Positions 8,161 to 59,290 of a stretch of DNA of 64,000 bases are shown here, piece by piece (position 1 is the first letter of the stretch; the number at the start of each line of letters is the position of its first letter). Source of the DNA: a virus; IMG/VR virus record IMGVR_UViG_3300008448_000018, positions 37,517 through 101,516 of that record, one strand, 5' to 3'. The position numbers and the translations under genes are program-made. The notes beneath the pieces were generated by a model. That model did no database searches. It saw nothing but the letters and a program-made list of their open reading frames with translations, and was not told the origin of the DNA.

Positions 8161-9081
8161 TTATTTTAGCATAGCCGATATAGAATTGTCAAACTGAAAC
8201 TCAAGTTTTCTGATTGAATCATCATCCATATCACCTATGTCTTTATATTTTTTATCTAGATTAACAATAGTTACCATTGATCCAAGTTTTTCAATTAACT
8301 TTTCTGTCATGATAATTCCTGCTTCATCATTATCTGCTATTAGTACAACGTTGTTGAAGTACTTCTCTAATAGTCTGATTTGTGATACAGACACATTAGC
8401 ACCCAGAGTTGCAACTGCTGGGAAACCTACTTGATCTAATCGTATTGCATCAAATGATGATTCTACGACATATACAATGCTTGATGTTTTAATTCTATTA
8501 AGATTGAATAGTATCTTACTTTTTGGAAGACCTGGAGTATTCTTAAACTCTTTACCCTCGATTGTTCTAGCAACAAAGCCCAGGCACATTCCTTCGTGAT
8601 TATGCATTGGTACTGTAACTGAATCTTGTTTTTCTGAATATCCAAGGCTAAATTTGATCATAGAATCTTTTGTAATCTTACGACCTTCAAAATATCTAAT
8701 TGCCCTAGGAGATTCCATAGCCTGATTATTTAATCTTTTAATAAGTAGTTCGTCATACTGAACAAAGTCAGGTGGACTATAAAGTGTTTTATTTATTACA
8801 CTAGTAAGATCTGTTTCTTGACCCTTGCTACGAATATATCGAACTGCCTCAAAGTATGTCCTATTGGATATAGTCATAACAAACTCTTCTAAACTTTTGG
8901 TTACTTGACATCCAAAACAAAAGAACCTACCATGCTCTTTAGATATTTCTCCTGCAGGAGTTCTACTATTATTATGATAAGGACAATACACAATTAGTTC
9001 ATTACCAAACTCAGCCTCAACATCTACGCCAATTCCGTTTAATACTCTTCTAATTTGCTCTTCTGTATATATGTCTGTCAT
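8161..9081 (-). CDS. dnaG: DNA primase (start probably 9081, MTDIY)
   Basis: CHC2 zinc finger CPYH...CFGC; TOPRIM VVES.FD and ADNDEAG; KDIGD. Confidence 0.9.
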   Translation of the reverse strand: MTDIYTEEQIRRVLNGIGVDVEAEFGNELIVYCPYHNNSRTPAGEISKEHGRFFCFGCQVTKSLEEFVMTISNRTYFEAVRYIRSKGQETDLTSVINKTLYSPPDFVQYDELLIKRLNNQAMESPRAIRYFEGRKITKDSMIKFSLGYSEKQDSVTVPMHNHEGMCLGFVARTIEGKEFKNTPGLPKSKILFNLNRIKTSSIVYVVESSFDAIRLDQVGFPAVATLGANVSVSQIRLLEKYFNNVVLIADNDEAGIIMTEKLIEKLGSMVTIVNLDKKYKDIGDMDDDSIRKLEFQFDNSISAMLK

Positions 9082-9082
9082 T

Positions 9083-10306
9083 TTATTTTCCGTCTTCGTA
9101 ATCTTTGTATCTGTAATAACCTTTATCAAAATCTACTTGTACTAAGAAATCACCCATAAAACCATTACGATTCTTTCTAAATACACACTCAATAATATCA
9201 CTATTGGTAGCACGACCAAGAGCCATTACCCAGTCAGCATCATAAGCAATCTGTCTAGACCATGCTGTTTGACCCAGAGTAGGTGCACTACTAAGATCTT
9301 TTACATCATCTGGAGTAGCAGAGGAAATAGCAATAATAGGAACTTCTTCACTAATAGCCATAAGTTTAAGTTCTCGTGAAAGGTTCTTCATTCGTACCGT
9401 TTCATTATCTGACTTTTGATTTGGACTCATAAGTTGTAGGTAGTCTACAATAACAAAGTCTGGCTTATACTGATCAATCTTTCCACGAATAACGGAGGGT
9501 GTAACTTCACCACCATTGTCATTTGAAATAATGTGAAACTCTGGTCTGCCTGCAACCTTATTAGCATGCCAATTTTTAAGCATATCAAGTTCTACTTCAC
9601 CATTGCTTAATTTTCTATGTGACCAAACACCTTCACCCATGATTGCAAAAACACGATTACGAACTTCTGTTTCAGACATTTCAAGAGAAATAATTAATGG
9701 AGACTTTCCTTGCTTCCATGCTTGCACTGCAAAGTATAAAGCCATCCAAGACTTACCAATTCCAGGGTAAGCAAGAAATACTCCAAGTTGACCTGGCATA
9801 ATTCCAGAAGGTAGATAGTTATCAAATCCTGGAAGATTAGTTTTAATTCCAATTTGACCAGTCTCTTTTTGTTTTTGAACATTTTCGTAATATGCAATAG
9901 CAGACTCTAAATCTGTAGCATCAATATCACGTATAGCAGAGGTATTCTTTTTTAATTCTGAGGTCTTAGTGATAAGTTCTTCTAATGCTTTTGAACCTTC
10001 TCCACCCTGCACTTCTCCTGCTGCAGACCTCAATATATCTTTTAGACTATCATTTAAATACTCAGTCTGCAATTCTTCAAGATGATGTTTAGTTGCTCCG
10101 ACACCAGATACTGGTTCAAAATCTCTAAATTTTTCTACAACTAAAGAAGCAGGGGGAACGCTACCATTATTTTCAAAGTACAGCCTAATAAAATTCCAGA
10201 TATCGTTATGTGTTCTAAGAAGATTTTCTACATTTGCCTGTAGCAAAACATGCATTTGCTTATCTTCGAGTAGTGCAGATATAACCCTTGCTTCTGTATT
10301 ATTCAC
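9083..10306 (-). CDS. dnaB: replicative DNA helicase
   Basis: Walker A AYPGIGKS, SLEMS, IVDYLQLM, YDAD, KNRNG. Confidence 0.93.
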   Translation of the reverse strand: MNNTEARVISALLEDKQMHVLLQANVENLLRTHNDIWNFIRLYFENNGSVPPASLVVEKFRDFEPVSGVGATKHHLEELQTEYLNDSLKDILRSAAGEVQGGEGSKALEELITKTSELKKNTSAIRDIDATDLESAIAYYENVQKQKETGQIGIKTNLPGFDNYLPSGIMPGQLGVFLAYPGIGKSWMALYFAVQAWKQGKSPLIISLEMSETEVRNRVFAIMGEGVWSHRKLSNGEVELDMLKNWHANKVAGRPEFHIISNDNGGEVTPSVIRGKIDQYKPDFVIVDYLQLMSPNQKSDNETVRMKNLSRELKLMAISEEVPIIAISSATPDDVKDLSSAPTLGQTAWSRQIAYDADWVMALGRATNSDIIECVFRKNRNGFMGDFLVQVDFDKGYYRYKDYEDGK

Positions 10307-10607
10307 TAAGCCACTTCCTCGCCATCGCTCTGCGCTCTTTGCGCTCTTGCAAATCTAATTGATAATCTTTTTTACCGTTGATAATCTTTTCTGCGTTGTA
10401 TGCAAAATAATTCCAACTTGGTTCTTGTGCAACACTAAAATAATAATCAAGTAATTCATAGCAATTACTAATGCCATAAGATTCTATCAAGGCATCAGAA
10501 GCCCACTGCTCTACATTTAAATTCAGAGATGGCTTTTGCTCATACTTTGCTGTATGTAACTTGCTGTACCTACTAAGCAAAGCCATGCGGTCTTTGCGTT
10601 CAGCCAT
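10299..10607 (-). CDS. hypothetical protein (replication module)
   Basis: 102-aa ORF coupled to dnaB. Confidence 0.7.
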   Translation of the reverse strand: MAERKDRMALLSRYSKLHTAKYEQKPSLNLNVEQWASDALIESYGISNCYELLDYYFSVAQEPSWNYFAYNAEKIINGKKDYQLDLQERKERRAMARKWLSE

Positions 10608-10816
10608 TATGCCTCTGCAGCCTCTTCCTGTGCTTCTTTAATCTTGTCAGTGAGTTTTTCTTCTACAAACTTGTAGACACGCTCAAATGCCTGCTCAGTA
10701 GTCTCGCCATCACGCTTGCTATCAATAACGCCAAGATCAAGTCTTAGAGATTGAAAGTTTCCAAGGTTTAGCGTATATCCCAGAGTTACATTTACTTTTG
10801 TTGAATCGTTTTCCAT
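10607..10816 (-). CDS. hypothetical protein (start 10816 or 10828)
   Basis: VTLGYTLNLGNFQSLRLD; ATG at 10816 is directly preceded by GGGTGGGGTA. Confidence 0.7.
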   Translation of the reverse strand: MENDSTKVNVTLGYTLNLGNFQSLRLDLGVIDSKRDGETTEQAFERVYKFVEEKLTDKIKEAQEEAAEA

Positions 10817-10837
10817 TACCCCACCCATTTCATAGTT

Positions 10838-11380: not shown

Positions 11381-11517
11381 CTACCTTGCTCACTTTCTGA
11401 AGGAGGGTGAAAAAAAATTCTTGATCCACATAACACACAAAAGATCTCTATATGTTCGGTTGTATTGTATTGTCTATCGACAAGCATACGACCTTTGCAT
11501 TTTTTGCAAAAAATCAT
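11326..11517 (-). CDS. small zinc-ribbon protein
   Basis: CKKC...CVLCG; first gene after the virion module. Confidence 0.65.
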   Translation of the reverse strand: MIFCKKCKGRMLVDRQYNTTEHIEIFCVLCGSRIFFHPPSESEQGRWILQKEKSRAKRTITSL

Positions 11518-11532
11518 TTCCCACCCTTAACT

Positions 11533-36754: not shown

Positions 36755-39700
36755 CTATACTGGAATCTTGACCGTGGTCTGCCAATCTGTATCGGAATAC
36801 AGTCTCAACTTTTCAGCATCAAATATCATGCCTTCAGAGTCATCAATGATAATCTTATTAGTTCCAAGGTAGGTTTTATAAACATCTGCAGGGTTAACTC
36901 CGTATAGGTCTGAAGCCTCAACTACCAATACACCTTCCCAAGTAAAGTTATTTAGCCAGTACTGCCACTGGTAGTTTGTAACTCCATCAGTCTTAACCCT
37001 AAGCCAAGGTCTAGTAATAGTACTCTGTACCTGCTGTAGATTATTAGCCTGGTAGTAGGCTATATTATTAAATAGCATTGGTCCTGTTAGATTAATACCG
37101 CCAAGGTATGCATCAAAGTTTAGGGCTGTTCCAAATGCAATTCCTAGTACACCCCACTCTTTAACTGTTAAGACTGGCTCTCTAACCAATATTCCATTCC
37201 AGTAATAGGCTAGTCCATTAAATGGTAAACCAGAGGCTAGGCTTTTTGCATATATCTTTGCCCTTGTTCCCTTTTCACTATCGGCAACCATATAAAACTT
37301 AATTGTGTCACCTTTATAGTCAATTTCAAACAACTCTGTTGGAATAATTGGGAACTGCTCATCATCATATCTCATCCAAATTTGAGCAGCACTTACACGA
37401 TAGTTTGCTGCTTGCTCTTGGTTGATTGGAACAGCAATACCACGATTAACCTGCTGATCAAATTCTCCACGAACCTGTATTCCAGTTTTTCTATTTAGGT
37501 ATAGATATGGCGTGCTTCCCTTATAAATGCTAAATGGGTTCTTTGATTTATAGTCATAGTAAATGCCAGAGCGCTTGTATGGAAATACGTTAAGACCAAA
37601 TCTGGTTCCAATTGGGTTAAACGAGTTATTGTTCAATGCCTGTGATGCAAATTCTAGCCTGCTTAGTTTTATAGGCTTTGTTAAAATATTTCTAAGTTTA
37701 AACTCTAAATGAAAAACAATAGCCAAGTCATTAAAGTCTACAGTCTTTGTTGGGTAAATAAGGGTATTGTCAACAACCTCAAACTTTGTTGTTGCCCAAG
37801 ATGGATGCTGATCTATATCAATTATCTTATCACTCTTTGGAGTCTCTACAATAGTAAAAGAATCTTGCAAAGCGTTTGCACCTTCGGCAATATACTGGAA
37901 GGTTATATAACTTCTTATAGAAGCGCTTGACGTATCATACTCATAAAACTTTGCAGACTTTTCTAGCATATCTTGATAGTTAGCCCACCCAGTGTGAAGT
38001 ATATTATCTAACTGTGCGTAAGTATGCTGAAATGGGTTCTTATATTCTTCTTTTAGATCGCCGTAGGTCCAACTTTCTAGTACCGTCTCAGTTTCTGAAA
38101 GTTTATCTGGTGATGGATATCCTATATTAAACTGTAAAAAATCTAAATCATAAAATTGGTTGCCAACATCATTAGTTACAAATTGAGCAAAATATGATAG
38201 TGGAAGATAGTCTTGCCAATATCCAGAAACACCAATATCTAAGAAGAACTTGTCATAAGCCTCTGTTGGCAATAATGTATAACTTGCTGTATGGGCTATT
38301 AGAGCAATAGCATTTTCTTCTTCCAGCACTCCGCTAATTGATAGGTCATCAAATATTGCTATTCCAGTAGACAAAAAGTAATCAGAAATACTAGAAGCAT
38401 TAAATCCAGTACATAGACCAAACGAATAAATTTTACCAGTAAAAGTATTTAGTGGTTCTTCATCTCCGCCGATGTATGTTTGTAGCCCATTTTGATTACC
38501 AAAAAATGCTGAAACATTTTCTCCAAAATTATTTGAAATATCATCTAGGTTAATTCCAACAGAAAACAACTGATCAGACTCTAAAGATGCTGTTGTGTAT
38601 AACTCTTCATCTGTTCCATTATAGTTAAGAACATATTTAATAACATCTTCTTCTTGCTTAATTATAAAGTAATCTCCAGTTAATGTGCTATATATCTTGA
38701 TTAGTGTTTGTGGCTGTACGGTTGGTCCCGACTCTGGTCCTATGTCTGATGTACTGAATACTCCATATATAGCCTTTACCTGATCATTTAATATATTAAA
38801 CCTTGGGAAGTTAAAATAGCATTGTTCTGAATTCCATCCAACATTAGGTCTAAATGTAATGAATTTATAAGGTTCAATTGGTCCAGACTCTACTGTTTGA
38901 ACTGCCTGACAATCATCATATAGGTCTTGTAGTGTTTTTGAATCTAAAAATATTTCTGGAAGTTCATATTCTGGAGTTGTCAAAGATGTTGAAGTTGTAG
39001 TTAAGTTATCAAAACTACCCTGCTGCCATTGTGCAAAATCTGGGTAAGTATAGTTAGAAGTATAATCGGCAAATGGATAATCTATAAAAGCAGATGTTCC
39101 ACCGTAGGCTGAGTTAATACCTTCTGGAGACAAAACACCTTGACCGTATACCCATCTACGCTTTGCAACAGTAATTGGAATTTGATATGAATATATTGCA
39201 ACACAGTCAATTTCTACTGGAGTAACATCTGAGTAGGCATAAAAGCCAAGCCAGTCTTGTGAATCTCCATTTAGTGTTTCTTCTGGCAAAGCAATAGTTG
39301 CAGTATCTATTGCCATAGATATAACCTCTTCACCATTTAATAATACTGTTGCTGAGTTTCTAATTAAACGAACCTGGATAAGCATTGGTCTAACCCATTC
39401 ACCAACAAAGTGTGAAGCAAAGTTATCTCCTATTACAAGAGTTAAAAATCCACCCTCAACATAAAGACCATTAGATCCAGCAATAGGACCAAATATTCTT
39501 TTTGGTGTTGATGCACTTGAGTTAATTCTTGCCCAAAACTCTACAGTATATTCTTTATATCTTCCTACCTCATTTAAAAATCCTTTTCCTGGGACTATCA
39601 AAGAAGGTCTTCCTGAATCATTTGGAATTAATCTAGTAACACCTGATGCTCCATAAACAAGAGGGATGCTTGTATTTTTAGCAAGCAAAGCATTATTATT

Positions 39701-47226: not shown

Positions 47227-47451
47227 TCATAAAATGTAGAAGGTACTACCGATGACTGCTATGCCAATTCCTGGAGTTGTGTTTGTTGAAAAACCAGGAT
47301 AACCAATATCTTTAAACCTAACCTTGAATGGGTATATTCCCTGAACCTCTGCAAGAGTGGTTCCTATTCTTGTTATGTTTACATCTGTATATTCAGTTGG
47401 CTTTACCGATACCTTCGCAATTTCAAGGGTAGTAATTTTTTCAACTGGCAT
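47227..47451 (-). CDS. small virion-associated protein
   Basis: Packed ORF ending PGIGIAVIGSTFYIL. Confidence 0.55.
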   Translation of the reverse strand: MPVEKITTLEIAKVSVKPTEYTDVNITRIGTTLAEVQGIYPFKVRFKDIGYPGFSTNTTPGIGIAVIGSTFYIL

Positions 47452-48510: not shown

Positions 48511-49062
48511 ATGAGAGACAAGAATAAAGGGGTTTGGTTAGGTTTAATAGCACTGGTTGGGTTGTTTGCACCTTTTAGCAACGCCGCTAATGCTCTTGAA
48601 ACTAAAACTCTAATAAAAACTACAGTGGAAAAGGAATCAGCCCTCAAAGGGGCTTTTTTGGTTTCTAAGGAGAAAATGTTAGAGAAGTACGAAAATGCTC
48701 ATAACTTAAGTGATGGGCAGTTGGTTGAACTATTAAAGACAGTAGGTTTCAAAGGAAAGGCTTTACGATCTGCTTGTGCAATCGCCAAGGCTGAGTCTAA
48801 TGGTCGCCCACTTGCTTTTAATGGCAACCTAAAAACTGGAGATAGTTCATACGGAATGTTTCAAATAAACATGATCGGTGAATTGGGTCCAGATCGCAGG
48901 GAGAAGTTTGACTTAAGTTCAAACGCTGAGTTATTTAACCCAGTTACAAATGCACAGGTGGCGCTTCACATGACAAAGAGCGGAACAGATTGGTCATCAT
49001 GGTCGTCCCTAAATGGGGCACGGTATCAGGAATGGTACAACAAATATCCATGTAAAGCATAA
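48511..49062 (+). CDS. secreted lytic transglycosylase (lysozyme-like/SLT)
   Basis: Signal peptide ending ANA; catalytic AIAKAES; GDSSYGMFQIN; LFNPVTN; WSSW. Confidence 0.82.
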   Translation: MRDKNKGVWLGLIALVGLFAPFSNAANALETKTLIKTTVEKESALKGAFLVSKEKMLEKYENAHNLSDGQLVELLKTVGFKGKALRSACAIAKAESNGRPLAFNGNLKTGDSSYGMFQINMIGELGPDRREKFDLSSNAELFNPVTNAQVALHMTKSGTDWSSWSSLNGARYQEWYNKYPCKA

Positions 49063-49069
49063 AATTTAA

Positions 49070-49112
49070 TAAAAAAGACCCCATTAGACATTTTGTCTTT
49101 TGGGGTTTTTTA
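49070..49112. terminator. bidirectional intrinsic terminator
   Basis: AAAAAAGACCCCA...TGGGGTTTTTT between convergent genes. Confidence 0.75.
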
Positions 49113-49123
49113 TTGTTTAAATT

Positions 49124-50452
49124 TTATGAAAGTGGATAACGGATAATAATTAAGCCTGAACCACCTGCGCCACCAACAATAGTTCCACCAGTACCTCCAC
49201 CTCCTCCACCTCCGCCAGTGTTTGCTGTTCCAGCAGTTCCTGTCGTTGGTGTTCCAGCGCCTCCAGCACCGCCACCGCCATAACCACCCCTTGATTGAGT
49301 ACTATTAGTAAAGGCACCGCCTCCGCCGCCACCTGCATAGTAGTAAACTCCACCTACTAATTCACCAGTACCAGTTACTGACCCCCAAGAATTAAAAATA
49401 AGACCATTACCACCATTACCTGCAGTCGTTGCGGTTCCATTTGTTCCAATCTGACCTGCACCACCGCCACCGCCAGCACCACCATTGATTACTGAACCGA
49501 TTCCGCCTGCATATCCTTGACCTACTGTTGGAGTGCCACCAGCATTACTGCCGTAAGCACCTCCTCCACCACCTGAACCTCCTGATGCTCCAGCCACACC
49601 ACCGTTACCTCCACCACCACCGCCAACTGTAGTAAAAGTAGAAAATATAGAAGACGAGCCTCGAACTCCATTAGTACCCGCTGTAGCACCACCTGAACCT
49701 ACTAATGCAGTATAAACAGTTCCTGAATTAAGAGTTTGTGAAACAGGATTAAGTAGTCCTCCAGCACCTCCACCACCAGCCTCATTTATACTTCCTCCAC
49801 CGCCGCCTGCAATAACTAAATATTCAGCACCAGTAATTTTCTGGGAAGGTATAAAAGATCCAGTACTAGTAAATGTATGATAAGCATAACCACCAGCAAC
49901 TGTGAGTGTTCCACCTGTTGCTTTTACACCATTAGATATTCCATATAATGTAAATGTTGAACCTGACAACAAAGTTCTTGGAGTATTATATCCATCTATG
50001 GTTATTGAAGTTATTGGGTTGGTGTCGCTACAAGAGTTTGAAGTAAATCCTACTTGCGAACTGGTAGCATTGTTCTCTGCAGTTCCGTCAGAACTCCATA
50101 ATTTTCTAGTATTAGAAGTATAATTAGAGAAATAAAACTCAGTATTAGAGTAAACTCCTGCTGTTGCTGTAGTAGCAGTACTTATTCCTGAATAGGCATA
50201 TGTCAGTCCAGTAGCGCTTCCACCGTCAGCACCTGTTGAACTTCCAGTACCGTACATTCTTCTATTTGCATAAGTTGCAGCAGTATTACCATTAATAGTA
50301 ATTCTTAAGTCATCTGCATAACTATCTCTTCCAGATCTTGCAGAGCAAACAATCTTCAAATCAGTATAATTTTGCGGAATATTAGAAAAAACTATAGATG
50401 TAACATCTGAAGTAAGTGTATAAGTCTGAATAGGAATAATTGTATTTGGCAT
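49124..50452 (-). CDS. glycine-rich virion/adhesin-like protein
   Basis: FSNIPQ.YTDL N-domain, KATGG, polyglycine repeats, GGSGLIIIRY end. Confidence 0.7.
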   Translation of the reverse strand: MPNTIIPIQTYTLTSDVTSIVFSNIPQNYTDLKIVCSARSGRDSYADDLRITINGNTAATYANRRMYGTGSSTGADGGSATGLTYAYSGISTATTATAGVYSNTEFYFSNYTSNTRKLWSSDGTAENNATSSQVGFTSNSCSDTNPITSITIDGYNTPRTLLSGSTFTLYGISNGVKATGGTLTVAGGYAYHTFTSTGSFIPSQKITGAEYLVIAGGGGGSINEAGGGGAGGLLNPVSQTLNSGTVYTALVGSGGATAGTNGVRGSSSIFSTFTTVGGGGGGNGGVAGASGGSGGGGGAYGSNAGGTPTVGQGYAGGIGSVINGGAGGGGGAGQIGTNGTATTAGNGGNGLIFNSWGSVTGTGELVGGVYYYAGGGGGGAFTNSTQSRGGYGGGGAGGAGTPTTGTAGTANTGGGGGGGGTGGTIVGGAGGSGLIIIRYPLS

Positions 50453-51813
50453 TAGACTGGATACCTCACAATAACTAGACCCGAACCACCATTTTTTGGG
50501 TCACCAGTTGCGTCGCCACCACCGCCGCCGCCAGTGTTTGCTGTTCCTGCTGTGCCAGTTGATATAAAGCGGGCACCACCATTTCCGCCACCACCTGCAC
50601 CACCTGTTCCTGCATAGTAACTTTGACCGCCATCATATGAGCCGCCTCCACCGCCACCTGCAATATAACCGCTAACACCTGTGCCAGTAGCATTAAGCCA
50701 AGAAGATAAAGTATTTAGACCAGGACCACCATTTCCAGCATTTTGTCCTGAAGCATTACCACCTGTGTTGCCAGCACCACCACCGCCGCCGCCATGAGCA
50801 TACCCAGTACTTCCTGACCCGCCATTTCCACCAGCATAGCCTTGCACTGGAGAAGTGGAAGGTGTATTTCCAGCACCACCTGCGCCACCGATGTAACCGC
50901 CACCACCACCGCCTGAGCCGCCGCTATTACCAGCCTTAAAAGAATCGTATGAACCTCCAGTGCCACCACCCGCAGATGTAGTTACCGCAAAAACTGAGTC
51001 CGAACCATTTGGATTTTTATAGGTTGTAGCAGCACCTGTGCCACCAGCACCAATTATTACGGGATAACCTTGTGGTGTTACAGAGTAAGAAGTAGAAGTT
51101 CTATAACCACCAGCGCCGCCACCACCGCCGCCAACACCGCCCGCAACTCCACCACCACCTCCACCTGCAACTACTAAATAGTCAACAGACATTGCAGTTT
51201 TTACATCAAGAATACCTGAGTTTTTAAATGCGTGGTACCAATAAGTACCATCTGTAGTAATAACATCTCCACCAGTTGCTTTAGGAACAGGAGCGGCTGC
51301 TTTGATTCCATAAAGAGTAAATGAACAACCAGAATTAAGATTACCATTTCCATATAAAGTTATAGATGTAATTGGTGAAGTATTTCTCCAAAGGTGCCCA
51401 AGAAGTTGTGTACTGGCAGTTGGATATCCACATCTGCTTATTGATGTTTTAAAAGTTGTTGCATTGGAATAATTCATTATGTGTGAAATACCACTTGTTG
51501 GATTTGTTGTATCTGTATCTCCAATAATGTATATTACTGATCCAGAATTTCTTCCTGATGTGACTGAAGTTATTCCTGTTAAATAAGTATTTGAATAATT
51601 AGATCCAGAGTCACCGTTAAATCTTAAAGAAACAAAGCCTGAACCACTTGACGTTGTTATGTTAGTTGATACAATTACCAAATCTGTATAAGTAGTTGGA
51701 ATATTAGAAAATGTAATAGAAGAAACTGCTCCTGATAAGGTTTGTGCATAAATTGGGGTATAAGTACTAAACTCTCCTTGAGGACCACCACTGGGTGTAG
51801 TTGTTATAGGCAT
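50452..51813 (-). CDS. glycine-rich virion/adhesin-like protein
   Basis: Same architecture; ends GGSGLVIVRYPV. Confidence 0.7.
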   Translation of the reverse strand: MPITTTPSGGPQGEFSTYTPIYAQTLSGAVSSITFSNIPTTYTDLVIVSTNITTSSGSGFVSLRFNGDSGSNYSNTYLTGITSVTSGRNSGSVIYIIGDTDTTNPTSGISHIMNYSNATTFKTSISRCGYPTASTQLLGHLWRNTSPITSITLYGNGNLNSGCSFTLYGIKAAAPVPKATGGDVITTDGTYWYHAFKNSGILDVKTAMSVDYLVVAGGGGGGVAGGVGGGGGGAGGYRTSTSYSVTPQGYPVIIGAGGTGAATTYKNPNGSDSVFAVTTSAGGGTGGSYDSFKAGNSGGSGGGGGGYIGGAGGAGNTPSTSPVQGYAGGNGGSGSTGYAHGGGGGGAGNTGGNASGQNAGNGGPGLNTLSSWLNATGTGVSGYIAGGGGGGSYDGGQSYYAGTGGAGGGGNGGARFISTGTAGTANTGGGGGGDATGDPKNGGSGLVIVRYPV

Positions 51814-52415
51814 TATGCTACCTTGATTCCATATAACGCAGCAGTTGTTCCTGAAGCCCAGGTGGAACCATTTACTGGAGACAAAGAGATTGTACTAATA
51901 GCATTTGCAGAATTTCTCCAGTTTCCAGAACTAAGATCTACCTCTCCTGAGCCATTTTGGTCATTACCTGTAATTGCACGAAAACTTTTAGTTTTAGATG
52001 TACTTGAGTAATCTACAATATCTATAATGCTTACCCCAAAAATAGATGCAGAAGCATTTGCTGCTGTAATAGCAAAAGTTCTTCCATAGGTAGCACTACC
52101 ACCTGTTAATGCTCCAGAACCTACTGAACTGCCATTACCCCACAAATCGTGGTTTGAGTAGTTAGCAGTAGTATCACTATTAAATACTAATTTAATTCCA
52201 TCTTGTGTACTTGCAGTAGTTGATCTAGCCATCATTCTAATCTGCAAATGTGTATAATTTGCAGGTATATCACTAAAAACAATACTAGAAGCCGTACTAG
52301 TCAAAGTAACTGTAGCCAAAGCAAACATGCCACTCTGGAAGGTCGTCTGATCCCAAAGTTTAGACGACTTACCATTAGTCTGAATACTTGAGGTAGATAA
52401 CCTTCTGAGTGCCAC
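51813..52415 (-). CDS. virion protein, paralog of the Gly-rich proteins' N-domain
   Basis: FSDIPANYTHLQIR...ALYGIK. Confidence 0.65.
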   Translation of the reverse strand: MALRRLSTSSIQTNGKSSKLWDQTTFQSGMFALATVTLTSTASSIVFSDIPANYTHLQIRMMARSTTASTQDGIKLVFNSDTTANYSNHDLWGNGSSVGSGALTGGSATYGRTFAITAANASASIFGVSIIDIVDYSSTSKTKSFRAITGNDQNGSGEVDLSSGNWRNSANAISTISLSPVNGSTWASGTTAALYGIKVA

Positions 52416-52433
52416 GGTTTATTGCTCCTAAAA

Positions 52434-52670
52434 TTAGATTACGAGTACTGCTGCTTCTTCTTCTGTCAAAGGTGTTCCAGCAATTAGTTTTGCTCTTGCT
52501 GATGCTTTGAGTTCCGCCAATGCTTCGGCTGCTGCTACACGCTCTGCTTCTGCTTCTAGAGCGGCTGCTGCATCTTGATCACGCTGTGCAATTTCTGCAG
52601 CAGTCAAGGGAACAATCTTTTGTTCTCCACTGGCGCAATCAACTACGATCTTTGTTAATGCTTCAGACAT
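52434..52670 (-). CDS. small fibre-associated/chaperone-like protein
   Basis: Ala/Glu-rich helical; ends LTEEEAAVLVI. Confidence 0.6.
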   Translation of the reverse strand: MSEALTKIVVDCASGEQKIVPLTAAEIAQRDQDAAAALEAEAERVAAAEALAELKASARAKLIAGTPLTEEEAAVLVI

Positions 52671-53041
52671 TATTCAACTTCCTTCCATGAGGTTGTATCT
52701 TCATCCCATGTGAAGAATTTTCCTTCTTCAACAGGCATAGGTGTTGGGGCTTCCCAAAGACATGTGTCTTCGTTAAGGTTCCATGAATCAAATGGCTTAG
52801 GTGGTATGAAAGCATCTCTGCCTGCATCATACTTAAAGCCAATACCCGCATAATTCTTGCGGTATGGAGTTCCACCATTTGAGTGTACTCCTCCGACGGT
52901 ATTGTAAGAAGTTTTCTTCCATGTACCGCCAAGTCCTAGATCATCTGCCAAAAATTCTTGACCACGATCTTCTTGTGCATCTGCAACTACTAAAACACGA
53001 AGGACTGTGCCCTCTGCGTCAATTTCTGCAAAATGTGCCAT
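52670..53041 (-). CDS. fibre-associated protein
   Basis: MAHFAEI...RKNYAGIG..YD...DAFIPPKP..SW...WEAP.P.P...W.E. Confidence 0.65.
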   Translation of the reverse strand: MAHFAEIDAEGTVLRVLVVADAQEDRGQEFLADDLGLGGTWKKTSYNTVGGVHSNGGTPYRKNYAGIGFKYDAGRDAFIPPKPFDSWNLNEDTCLWEAPTPMPVEEGKFFTWDEDTTSWKEVE

Positions 53042-53089
53042 TACTTACCTCCTTGTTTGTATAACTTATTATAGCATTAAAAATTTTTG

Positions 53090-54463
53090 TTATGCTTTGT
53101 ATCTGATAATTACTATACCAGAACCACCAGAACCACCTTCATAGTAGTTAGAAGAAGTAGGTGAACTTCCACCTGCACCGCCGCCACCGCCAGTGTTACG
53201 GTCTCCGTTATTTCCTGCTCCTTCATCATTTGCTTTGCCGTTTCCTCCGCCGCCTATGCCTCCAGAACCAGCAGTTGTTCCTCTTGCTCCAGCACCGCCA
53301 CCACCAGCAAAGTAAGTTGTAGTTCCGTTATACCAAATTCCTACACCAGCGCCACCATTTCCTGAAGTTGCACCTGAAACACCTGCAGCGCCTGCGCCAC
53401 CGCCGCCACCGCCACGAGTGCCGCTACCTGCACCACCTGCATTACCCTGAGAAGAAGGAGAAACGGAGCCACCTGATCCAGAAGAACCAGCGCCACCACC
53501 ACCAGAGGCTCCTGAAGTACCTGTAAATCCACTACTTCCATTATCACGACCACCACCGCCACCACCTGCAGGGGCAAGAGTAAATGAACCAAACCCAAAG
53601 GTTGTTGTGTTTCCATTAGTTCCATTAGTTCCAAAACCTGAGCCTGCTGCATTAACTCCTGGTCCTGCTGCGCCACCTGCGCCAATTGTAATAGTTCCTG
53701 ATGCTCCAGAAGGAAAAGATGTTAAAGAAGTTAGGTAACCTCCTGCACCACCACCTCCTGCACCATTACCTCCACCTTGAGCACTTCCTGCACCTCCACC
53801 ACCAGCAAAAGCAAAGACATCTGCGGCTGGAATTGGTGCGGTAGTTGAAAAGGTTCCCGAAGAAGTAAAGGTATGGTAAACATAAGTACCATCAAATACT
53901 ATATTTCCACCAGTTGCTTTGATTGAGTTACCTGCAGTTTTTGCAGCGTTTTTAATTCCATAAAGAGTAAAAGTTGAATTCTCTGAAATTGTTCCAGCGG
54001 ATGAAGATATATCAATACTTGTTATAGGATCAGGGTTTGACCAAAGACCTGAGGCAATTATTAAATAGGCAATAGTTTGGTTTGCTTCAGTGGTGCAATC
54101 AACAGTGTAAGTTTTGTAAACATAACCCGTATAGTTTGGTATATTAATTTCTGTATTTGAAAATACGTTATCTGTTACAGGAGAGTTTACTCCTGGAAAT
54201 CTTCCTATATCACCAGCAGTAGTTGCGCCAGTTCCAGTAGCAACGCTATCCCCACGTCCTTGAGCGTAGACGGAAGAGTAGCCTGTTGTGCTTCCATTAA
54301 ACTTTAATCTTGCAATAGTTCCAGTATTTCCATCACTAGTTCTTGCAGAAATAAGTATTTTTAAATCTGTGTAATTTTGAGAAATATTAGAAAAAGTAAC
54401 AGTTGATGTACCGCCTACCCCAACAGTAGTTGAACTAAGTTTTGTCATTGTCTCTAAACTCAT
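53090..54463 (-). CDS. glycine-rich virion/adhesin-like protein
   Basis: Same architecture; ends GGSGIVIIRYKA. Confidence 0.7.
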   Translation of the reverse strand: MSLETMTKLSSTTVGVGGTSTVTFSNISQNYTDLKILISARTSDGNTGTIARLKFNGSTTGYSSVYAQGRGDSVATGTGATTAGDIGRFPGVNSPVTDNVFSNTEINIPNYTGYVYKTYTVDCTTEANQTIAYLIIASGLWSNPDPITSIDISSSAGTISENSTFTLYGIKNAAKTAGNSIKATGGNIVFDGTYVYHTFTSSGTFSTTAPIPAADVFAFAGGGGAGSAQGGGNGAGGGGAGGYLTSLTSFPSGASGTITIGAGGAAGPGVNAAGSGFGTNGTNGNTTTFGFGSFTLAPAGGGGGGRDNGSSGFTGTSGASGGGGAGSSGSGGSVSPSSQGNAGGAGSGTRGGGGGGAGAAGVSGATSGNGGAGVGIWYNGTTTYFAGGGGAGARGTTAGSGGIGGGGNGKANDEGAGNNGDRNTGGGGGAGGSSPTSSNYYEGGSGGSGIVIIRYKA

Positions 54464-55788
54464 ACTGGATACCTCACAATTACAATACCTGAAGCACCAT
54501 TAGATCCCTGGCGAGAGTTTACGCTAGTATACGATCCTCCACCACCGCCGCCGCCGCCATTAACTGTTGGACTTGTTGGATTTACGTTTCCACTTGAACT
54601 TTGTTGTCCACCAGTTCCAGCATTTGTACCAGCAGTTCCTGCTGTACCAGTACTACCATTGACGTAAATACCTCCAGAACCTCCAGAACCAAAATGTGTT
54701 AAGCCTGAAATAGTTAGTCCAGAAAATATATTTGATAAGGCATATCCCTGTCCACCAGCACCTGAAACACGAGTAGATGTATTGGCTGCTCCACCAGCAG
54801 AGGTTGCACCTCCACCTCCACCACCAGCATATCGCTCAGGTCCGCTACCTACTGCAAAACCTGCACCACCAATATTTGTATTAGAACCTGAAGCACCTCC
54901 ACCACTAGAACCTAGAGCACCACCGCCACCTGAACCACCAGTTTGTCCAGCCTGTAAACCAGCAGATGCATCACCAGTTCCACCGCCACCTCCACCTAAT
55001 GAGGTTGTGTCAGAGGCAAAACTTGTAGTTGCACCATTTGCACCTGCAGATGAAGTGCTGGTTGCTGTAGCGCCACCGCCACCAATAGTAACTGTTTTGG
55101 TAACTCCAGAAGCAATTGACAAGTTATTAAGAATGTCTACTTCGCCTCCACCGCCACCACCTGCGTTATTCCATCCTCCTCCGCCTCCACCGCCAACAGA
55201 CAAAACATCGCAAGTTAGTGCTTGGTTTGTAACAAATGATTGAGTTTGGTTAAATACGTGATACCAGTAATTTCCGTCGGTAAATAATAGACCACCAGTA
55301 GCCTTTGGAGTACCTGATTTAATACCGTATAGAGAAAAAGTAGTTCCTGTTTGAAAAAGATTTGTTCCGCCAGTGCCACATTCAATTGATGTAATTGCTG
55401 CAGTACTACGCCATAAACCAATAGATGCTTTTACTCCACTTGTTGTATAATTACTGCGTGAAAGCGCAGTTTTAAAAGTTGTAGAGTTTGAGTAGTTATT
55501 AATGTGAGTAATTATATTTGACTGGGTAGCGATAATACTTCCATTATAAATATAAGTCTGATTTGTATTTCTATTTGTTGATGTTGCACTACCATTTCCA
55601 TCTATTTCAGTATTTGAATATAAAGAAGTTGTGTTACCATTAAAACGCAATGTAAAATAAGAACCTGTATTTGCAGTTCCATCTACAACAATAGTTAAGT
55701 GTGTGTAATCCTGTGGAATTCCAGAAAAAACTACTGAAGTTGTAGTTGAAGTTAAAACTACCGACTGTAATGGTTTATAAGTAGGCAT
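54460..55788 (-). CDS. glycine-rich virion/adhesin-like protein
   Basis: Same architecture; ends SGIVIVRYPV. Confidence 0.7.
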   Translation of the reverse strand: MPTYKPLQSVVLTSTTTSVVFSGIPQDYTHLTIVVDGTANTGSYFTLRFNGNTTSLYSNTEIDGNGSATSTNRNTNQTYIYNGSIIATQSNIITHINNYSNSTTFKTALSRSNYTTSGVKASIGLWRSTAAITSIECGTGGTNLFQTGTTFSLYGIKSGTPKATGGLLFTDGNYWYHVFNQTQSFVTNQALTCDVLSVGGGGGGGWNNAGGGGGGEVDILNNLSIASGVTKTVTIGGGGATATSTSSAGANGATTSFASDTTSLGGGGGGTGDASAGLQAGQTGGSGGGGALGSSGGGASGSNTNIGGAGFAVGSGPERYAGGGGGGATSAGGAANTSTRVSGAGGQGYALSNIFSGLTISGLTHFGSGGSGGIYVNGSTGTAGTAGTNAGTGGQQSSSGNVNPTSPTVNGGGGGGGGSYTSVNSRQGSNGASGIVIVRYPV

Positions 55789-58483: not shown

Positions 58484-58587
58484 TATAACTCCTGTACCTT
58501 ATAAGTAACGTCATCAACCTTTACGATAGGTGGCAGGGTATCAGTTTTAGATGTAATAGCAATTACAATATCTGTTGGAATACTCAT
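58483..58587 (-). CDS. 34-aa protein missing from the ORF track
   Basis: MSIPTDIVIAITSKTDTLPPIVKVDDVTYKVQEL; AGGAGG RBS; ATGA and TAATG overlaps with both neighbours. Confidence 0.7.
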   Translation of the reverse strand: MSIPTDIVIAITSKTDTLPPIVKVDDVTYKVQEL

Positions 58588-58988
58588 AGACTACCTCCTG
58601 GAGAAACATCTCCTATAACAGTAATTGTACCAATAATCGGAGTCCAAACAGTATCTTCTCCAGCACCACTACCTGCTTCAATAATAACCTGTAAATCAAA
58701 AGGTAGTTCTGCTACCACAGATTTGTATGATGATCCCCAGTTAAGTGTGAGTGAGGCTGGAGCCTTAATAATTACCGAATGACCCTCAGACTCTGTTATA
58801 AGTTCATCTAGAACATCCCCGTTGACATCATAGGCTGTAGCCTTGTAGGTCCATCCAGTGCAGTCAAATCCTGTGGTCTCATCTAATTCAAAAAAGTCGA
58901 CAAATAGTTGGGCTGTGTCTCCACGGACAACGTTCCATTTTACGCTTATCGGGTTAGCGCCATATTTTTGGATTGTAGAGGTACACAT
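58584..58988 (-). CDS. BppU-N/Ig-like 'RGDT' domain protein
   Basis: WNVVRGDT...FDLQV...GTITVIGDV. Confidence 0.55.
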   Translation of the reverse strand: MCTSTIQKYGANPISVKWNVVRGDTAQLFVDFFELDETTGFDCTGWTYKATAYDVNGDVLDELITESEGHSVIIKAPASLTLNWGSSYKSVVAELPFDLQVIIEAGSGAGEDTVWTPIIGTITVIGDVSPGGSL

Positions 58989-59006
58989 AATAATTGATTA
59001 TACCAT

Positions 59007-59067
59007 AAAAAAGGATTAATCCCTAGGCGCAGTGGGGTGGGGTAGAGAGCAACCTAGGGACTAATCT
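59007..59067 (-). ncRNA. candidate ~61-nt hairpin small RNA with C-rich loop
   Basis: TGATATAAT promoter at 59082-59074; 14-bp stem GAUUAGUCCCUAGG/CCUAGGGAUUAAUC; loop UCUCUACCCCACCCCACU; U6 tail; no ORF. Confidence 0.65.
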
Positions 59068-59290
59068 GTTTAGATTATATCATTGATATTATAAAAATAT
59101 ATGAGGTTTATAACAAATTGTTATCATCCAGGTATATAAAGAATTGTTACCTAATTGTTATAATTCAAATGTCCGATTTATACTATAAGTTCACATATGC
59201 CAGAGTATTGATGGTGTATACTTAAATATATATAAAGAAAAGAATATCTTTAAACTTAGTTTTTAGAATATATATTATATATAGAAGAAA

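Follow-up and report, generated by a model that had tools for sequence, protein, structure and literature searches.

In the Firmicutes, sRNAs of the RsaE/RoxS and RNAIII types carry unpaired C-rich motifs which block G-rich Shine–Dalgarno regions, and in the phages P1 and P7 the c4 antisense RNA pairs through its loops with a phage gene at the ribosome-binding region, which also shuts off the coupled downstream genes. To our knowledge, few trans-acting sRNAs of phages are understood, and almost all of these belong to phages of enterobacteria. The C-rich loops of the 6C sRNA of Actinobacteria attach, with no chaperone involved, to G-rich ribosome-binding sites, among them the one of dnaB (PMC6486639). 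A lambda-family phage sRNA which acts on host replication has also been described (bioRxiv 10.1101/2024.10.31.621285), and abundant small non-coding RNAs, whose function and targets are unknown, were found by RNA-seq in the cluster A mycobacteriophages L5, D29 and StarStuff (PMC5712189). No actinophage sRNA with a defined target is described in the literature that was consulted, which included a recent review of phage sRNAs.

The locus considered here lies in a 64,000-nucleotide stretch of viral DNA (positions 37,517 to 101,516 of IMG/VR record IMGVR_UViG_3300008448_000018; hereafter the window), which belongs to a phage genome of 101,516 bp that is complete and carries direct terminal repeats. 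Nearly all genes of this genome are on the minus strand, and a count over the whole genome gives 20 extended -10 boxes on the coding strand as against 4 on the opposite one. Among cultured phages, the closest are large siphoviruses of Streptomyces (Stanwilliamsviridae), with identities to Streptomyces phages of 56% for the DnaE-type polymerase and 44% for the major capsid protein. A WhiB-family gene, located outside the window at G000:C1:22793-22966, scores 47 bits against a cut-off of 23.6. Extended -10 boxes standing only 6–8 nt before an ATG occur on the minus strand at 47229, 48382, 59005 and 59588, which indicates leaderless mRNAs. These three features, namely the WhiB gene, the leaderless mRNAs and the relationship to Streptomyces phages, identify the host as an actinobacterium, and the genomic G+C content of 38% suggests that this is probably a low-GC aquatic actinobacterium.

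The genome encodes, in one copy, a predicted hairpin RNA which is probably a phage-encoded translation regulator, as judged from comparative sequence analysis, and the closest known system to it, by analogy, is the 6C sRNA (B11; Rfam RF01066). Both belong to the same host phylum and both set a C-rich loop against a G-rich ribosome-binding site, which is a predicted one in the phage, and in each case a short G–C seed is expected to be enough. 6C is, however, a chromosomal and pleiotropic RNA with several stem-loops, whereas the phage RNA consists of a single long hairpin with one large loop containing two C-runs, and its best conserved predicted target is a gene of the phage itself. The RF01066 model has no match in the whole window at its gathering score, nor any at E ≤10 in 58950-59150; together with the single hairpin in place of several and the location in a phage, this means that the RNA is not a member of the 6C family. 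The first-pass annotation of this DNA had likened the RNA to RNAIII and RsaE. These have an unpaired C-rich motif too, but they are not the best analogues: 6C fits better, because the host is an actinobacterium, and RsaE/RoxS and RNAIII come from another phylum, have other architectures and are host-encoded. The Rfam covariance model for RsaE/RoxS also found no match. Like c4, the RNA is a small phage-encoded hairpin; c4 is, in contrast, processed from the transcript of its target and controls immunity through ant, whereas the present RNA has its own promoter and would act over 48 kb on a replication block. The lambda-family sRNAs, including OOP, are likewise short phage transcripts which end at a terminator and work through base pairing, one of them being tied to DNA replication, but they belong to Hfq-dependent Gram-negative systems, are cis-antisense or host-directed, and share neither sequence nor structure with this RNA. 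The RNAs of cluster A mycobacteriophages resemble it in being actinophage non-coding RNAs with a host-type promoter; they are known from RNA-seq, whereas the RNA described here is known from sequence comparison and has a predicted target.

The RNA unit comprises the following features.

59082-59074, minus strand: P1, an extended -10 box, TGATATAAT, of the TGNTATAAT type, with a predicted transcription start at about 59067/59066
59007-59067, minus strand: predicted sRNA of about 60 nt, made up of the hairpin and a U6 tail (from fold, covariance model and covariation)
59066-59014, minus strand: hairpin, 7 bases beyond the P1 box
59029-59051, minus strand: C-rich apical loop, with the open part at 59048-59031 and a weak 2-bp extension closing it
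59044-59035, minus strand: seed word of the loop, the exact complement of 10826-10817
59012-59007, minus strand: U6 tract, 3' of the hairpin
59005-58997, minus strand: P2, an extended -10 box, TGGTATAAT, 8 nt ahead of the leaderless ATG at 58988
58584-58988, minus strand: leaderless 134-aa gene (phrog_1084) driven by P2, used as the locus marker in relatives

P1, the hairpin, the U6 tract, P2 and two G-rich words proposed as targets were all found on the minus strand where the first-pass annotation had placed them, and its statement that the unit contains no ORF also holds, since none of at least 30 aa is present on the minus strand of 58989-59290. The hairpin stands 215 nt past the upstream stop codon, behind its own promoter P1. 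RNAfold predicts a stem of 15 bp with a 2-bp extension, an 18-nt open loop and an energy of -25 kcal/mol; dinucleotide shuffles of the same sequence give a mean of -12.8 (sd 2.4; z = -5.0), and none of the 200 shuffles equals the native value. The z-score and the covariation described below place the hairpin far beyond chance. No Rfam family was matched at its gathering threshold across the whole window, or at E ≤10 in 58950-59150. As is expected of a trans-acting sRNA, the unit lacks an ORF and is equipped with a promoter and a terminator of its own, with the qualification that the T tract is weak in some clades.

Relatives were sought using the 134-aa downstream gene as a marker, which returned 52 related contigs at 47–99% protein identity, and a profile search extended this to 560; hundreds of contigs from uncultured actinobacterial phages thus retain the unit. 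A covariance model of the hairpin, R1, matches the copy in the window at 59005-59066 with 84.6 bits and, among the 80 best loci of the 560 relatives, places the unit immediately ahead of the marker gene in 77. A second model, R2, built from the most distant clade, detects the remaining copies and also cross-detects the copy in the window. The element is single-copy in each genome. The order of elements is the same in almost all relatives, i.e. a -10 box, 6–8 nt, the stem, the loop, a T-rich tail, a second -10 box and a leaderless ATG, with stems of 14–17 bp and C-rich loops of 15–22 nt. Every one of the 38 distinct upstream sequences has the P1 box 6–8 nt before the hairpin, and the P2 box is invariant in alignment A1. 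The stems of different clades are wholly different in sequence and retain their complementarity, as seen in three alignments: 12 of 17 pairs have changed on both sides in A4 (26 sequences), 13 of 15 in A6 (15 sequences) and 12 of 17 in A8 (77 sequences), with 85.7%, 85.5% and 84.1% of cells paired, respectively. Shuffles of A4 give 69.7% and none of 500 attains the observed value, and in controls in which the register was slid by 1–3 columns only 27–58% of cells are paired.

Covariation of this kind cannot separate an RNA hairpin from a hairpin formed by single-stranded DNA, and the AT-rich, non-coding character of the region and its repeats would suit a cruciform that serves as a replication origin, a priming site or a packaging signal. 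Such a role at the level of DNA is nevertheless very improbable, given that the promoter is kept at a fixed 6–8 nt from the base of the hairpin in all clades and that the T tract is present on its 3' side only. In addition, G–U pairs are common in the stem on the transcribed strand (e.g. 25 of 49 at one pair), and these would be A–C mismatches on the other strand. We infer that a discrete RNA is transcribed from P1.

In contrast to the stems, the core of the loop, which reads UACCC and then ACC and in some clades has longer C-runs, is constant across clades. In a plain terminator the stem would be kept and the loop would drift. The combination of a fixed loop core and promoter with covarying stems thus argues against a plain terminator, and the claim of the first-pass annotation that this is a stand-alone structured RNA is upheld by the very comparison it had named as able to overturn it, in that the stem sequence varies and the loop is kept. 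Intrinsic terminators are expected to close a transcription unit with a T tract and to have a short G+C-rich stem and a loop of about 3–8 nt, as opposed to the 15–17 bp and 18–22 nt of this hairpin, and a terminator scan did not include the hairpin in its list.

A more elaborate role in cis for the virion operon can also be envisaged, as a terminator or insulator at which early transcription ends, or as a promoter-proximal terminator which a phage antiterminator would override, the loop being the recognition site of that factor. The late promoter of lambda with its short 6S transcript and the put and nut RNAs are parallels for such arrangements. The hairpin with its T tract, its position next to P2 and shortly before the genes for virion and tail-fibre proteins, and the candidate operators upstream of P1 would all be compatible with this. 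We nonetheless regard a cis element as unlikely. In its dimensions across relatives (stem 14–17 bp, loop 15–22 nt) the hairpin does not resemble an intrinsic terminator, and it is absent from the list of the terminator scan. The downstream gene is served by an invariant P2 and has a leaderless start, from which read-through RNA would be poorly translated. Moreover, in one relative (L139, 756-813) an extra ORF lies between the unit and the marker gene, which makes the unit a module separable from P2, and the complementarity of the loop to a site 48 kb away, which covaries with it, would be left unexplained. The U tract is poor in several clades, where some transcripts may read through. In a few relatives (L139, L392 and L424) the marker gene is not immediately preceded by the unit, or an extra ORF stands between the two, and P2 remains with the gene.

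The predicted target of the loop, about 48 kb downstream of the RNA gene, is the start region of a small gene at the head of an overlapping run of replication genes, and a second site had been proposed nearby.

10817-10826, minus strand: predicted target site, a G-rich word abutting the ATG at 10816 and complementary to the loop at 59044-59035
10607-10816, minus strand: 69-aa core gene (phrog_5189), the start region of which carries the predicted target
8161-10607, minus strand: overlapping downstream run of a 102-aa gene, a DnaB-like helicase and a primase (from ORF overlaps and family hits)
9083-10306, minus strand: DnaB-like helicase gene, which overlaps the 102-aa gene and the primase gene
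8161-9129, minus strand: primase gene
11520-11526, minus strand: second site of the first-pass annotation, a 7-nt word 2 nt before the ATG at 11517 of a 63-aa zinc-ribbon-like gene

The stop codon of the 69-aa gene overlaps the ATG of the 102-aa gene by one base. The 69-aa protein is 76–97% identical in 16 sampled relatives, as compared with 47–66% in most for the 134-aa marker, and its homologues in Streptomyces phages occupy the same place before a small gene, the helicase and the primase (window 10299-10828; L365). It is an unrecognised core protein of the replication module. The protein has no match in Pfam, its AlphaFold model (mean pLDDT 59) is too poor for a fold search, and in a protein atlas it meets only viral hypothetical clusters and a weak lead, at 0.76, to an ssDNA-binding family, which is not relied on here.

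Within the one genome, both proposed target matches are at chance level. The 10-mer, allowing up to one mismatch, has 4 sites against 1.5 expected and is equalled by 7 of 100 shuffles, and the 7-mer has 4 sites against 2.8 expected and is equalled by 32 of 100. Matches of 9 nt to the loop are about equally frequent on the sense and antisense strands; sense-strand matches of at least 10 nt number only two in the whole genome, and both are in start regions. It is only the comparison across genomes that lifts the match at 10816 above chance.

For this comparison, genes were called in ten related genomes, orthologous groups were built and the start regions (-25 to +21) of each genome were scored against its own loop. 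Of the 72 orthologous groups, that of the 69-aa gene scores highest: its longest Watson–Crick match averages 7.3 nt, and the next group has 6.0. The best groups obtained with control loops reach means of 6.9 (reversed loop) and 6.0 (complemented loop), so that the margin of the 69-aa gene over the null is real but moderate. By duplex energy the gene is tied for first, despite one mis-called start, and it was also first in an earlier run with six genomes, among groups present in at least four of them. Thirteen genomes retain 6–10 contiguous bases of complementarity to the loop at this start region.

Window and G016: 10 contiguous complementary bases
G008: 9 contiguous complementary bases
G003, G002 and G009: 8 contiguous complementary bases
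G001, G004, G005, G007, G026 and G027: 7 contiguous complementary bases
G006: 6 contiguous complementary bases

Two contigs, G022 and G024, gave chance matches to the start-region pattern; they do not carry the gene and were set aside.

The pairing is achieved by different solutions. In one, a doubled C-run in the loop lies opposite a doubled G-run at the start region. In another, CAUACCC in the loop lies opposite GGGUAUG, the AUG of which is the start codon itself in G004, and in a third UAUACCC lies opposite GGGUAUA, which differs from the second solution by one base on each side and represents a compensatory change. When loops and sites were re-paired by permutation among nine genomes, p was 0.002 for match length and 0.04 for energy. 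The genomes have a common ancestry, so that there are only about two or three independent events of co-variation and one lineage of co-loss. G001 pairs less well than its sister genome. A conserved seed that co-varies with a complementary site, as defines this class of sRNA, is thereby found by computation.

The co-loss concerns a single lineage, represented by the complete genome G021 and by G023, in which the start region of the 69-aa gene has no G-run at all. Neither R1 nor R2 finds a copy of the RNA anywhere in G021, and in this lineage the promoter–hairpin unit is missing from an otherwise homologous intergenic region. The absence in G021 rests on the two covariance models and on reading of the homologous intergenic region; simple hairpin scans overlook known copies that have internal mismatches. 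In the Streptomyces phage Samisti12 (gp74–gp78), a homologue of the 69-aa gene likewise precedes the helicase and primase genes; it has a canonical GGAGGA site, and the search for the RNA gave no match in this phage. The proposal of the first-pass annotation that the start region at ATG 10816 is a target of the loop is thus strengthened on three counts: its first rank among the orthologous groups, the covariation of loop and start region, and their joint loss in one lineage.

The loop might, alternatively, be read mainly by other partners, such as a phage or host RNA-binding protein (with the RNA as a decoy or sponge), the ribosome or host mRNAs that have G-rich ribosome-binding sites, and the phage site would then be secondary. 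In one clade, more of the loop core is conserved than the phage site would require, its 3' ACC being unused at the 69-aa start, which suggests a further partner. C-rich loops can in addition pair with any G-rich site, as illustrated by the strong duplexes with glycine codons noted below, and the G-rich word may simply be the ribosome-binding site of the 69-aa gene. The breadth of such pairing is seen in the host 6C RNA, which has dozens of targets (PMC6486639). Against this, the 69-aa start is the single best conserved match among the 72 groups, the loop and the site change jointly and are both missing in one lineage, and no result points to a protein partner, so that we consider a principal role for other partners possible but rather improbable.

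A further reading is that the RNA is a phage-borne functional mimic of host 6C, its loop tuning the helicase–primase block of the phage and also binding G-rich ribosome-binding sites of host mRNAs, e.g. that of dnaB, and thereby redirecting or shutting off host replication; we think this doubtful.

We favour, by a little over even odds, the interpretation of the RNA as a trans-acting antisense sRNA of a lytic-type actinophage, with its loop pairing to the ribosome-binding region of the 69-aa gene. According to this model, host RNA polymerase would start at P1 and make the hairpin of about 60 nt, ending at the U tract. The sole role of the stem would be to present the C-rich loop of 18–22 nt for pairing at the 69-aa gene, in its G-rich ribosome-binding region, and this pairing would most likely block binding of the 30S subunit and so reduce translation of the gene. 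Duplex energies of the loop alone at the start regions range from -11.5 to -22.3 kcal/mol and the start regions themselves are almost unstructured, which makes occlusion, and hence repression, likelier than activation. Since the 69-aa gene, the 102-aa gene, the helicase and the primase overlap, the effect could spread by translational coupling, and the output of helicase and primase would then be lowered too. Co-folding of the RNA with the start region using RNAcofold was uninformative, as the pairing of a loop to a strand cannot be represented by that program. A switch from replication to assembly brought about by the RNA, as put forward in the first-pass annotation, is conjecture.

The RNA constitutes a structurally simple family outside Rfam which is abundant in environmental viromes and has a specific predicted target backed by co-variation, and a direct test would be easy, since a single RNA of 60 nt, a single start region and compensatory mutations would suffice. 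Confirmation would mean that actinophages share the chaperone-free logic of C-rich loop and G-rich site with the host 6C RNA and use it to set the dose of replication proteins, and would provide a compact, programmable part for control of translation in Actinobacteria.

The other candidate targets fared differently. Complementarity at the second proposed site, ahead of ATG 11517, is confined to the clade of the window, other clades having short matches elsewhere, and the claim that it is a target is not sustained. In a gene for a subtilase-like secreted protein outside the window, 10 nt that lie 13 nt inside the gene are complementary to the 3' part of the loop (G000:C1:29230-29239, minus strand), and in the sister genome G001 the match at the same place is 11 nt. 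The signal-peptide codons concerned were rejected as a target, the match being found in the clade of the window only. The matches at 11517 and in the subtilase-like gene may be clade-specific extras or chance. In G002 (the contig of L157), a 13-nt perfect complement to the loop of that genome lies in the sense orientation at about 99893, directly after a -10 box, where a leaderless gene for a 71-aa membrane protein begins; this match is restricted to G002 and mostly upstream of the likely transcription start, and was also rejected. The many in-frame stops in the G002 contig suggest assembly errors. Two more gene groups rank high by energy and were discarded, their duplexes being gapped, inconsistent and located at internal methionines. 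The strongest hybrids of all by energy (to -35 kcal/mol) are with the repeats of glycine codons (GGN) in tail-fibre-like genes at 49000-55500; they contain many G–U pairs and were judged to be an effect of base composition, although some pairing there may occur.

Upstream of P1 lies a further feature.

59111-59160: AT-rich region upstream of P1, with a perfect 13-bp palindrome at 59111-59123 and two degenerate copies

The exact palindrome is unique in the window, the palindromes lie 30–80 nt upstream of P1, and similar palindromes are found upstream of P1 at related loci. They form a candidate operator for P1, and their counterparts in relatives suggest that P1 is itself regulated. On the plus strand, 59156-59179 holds an extended -10 box and then an 11-nt box, a possible divergent promoter or shared regulatory word, and in the most distant clade the 11-nt box occurs in the opposite orientation just upstream of the sRNA promoter.
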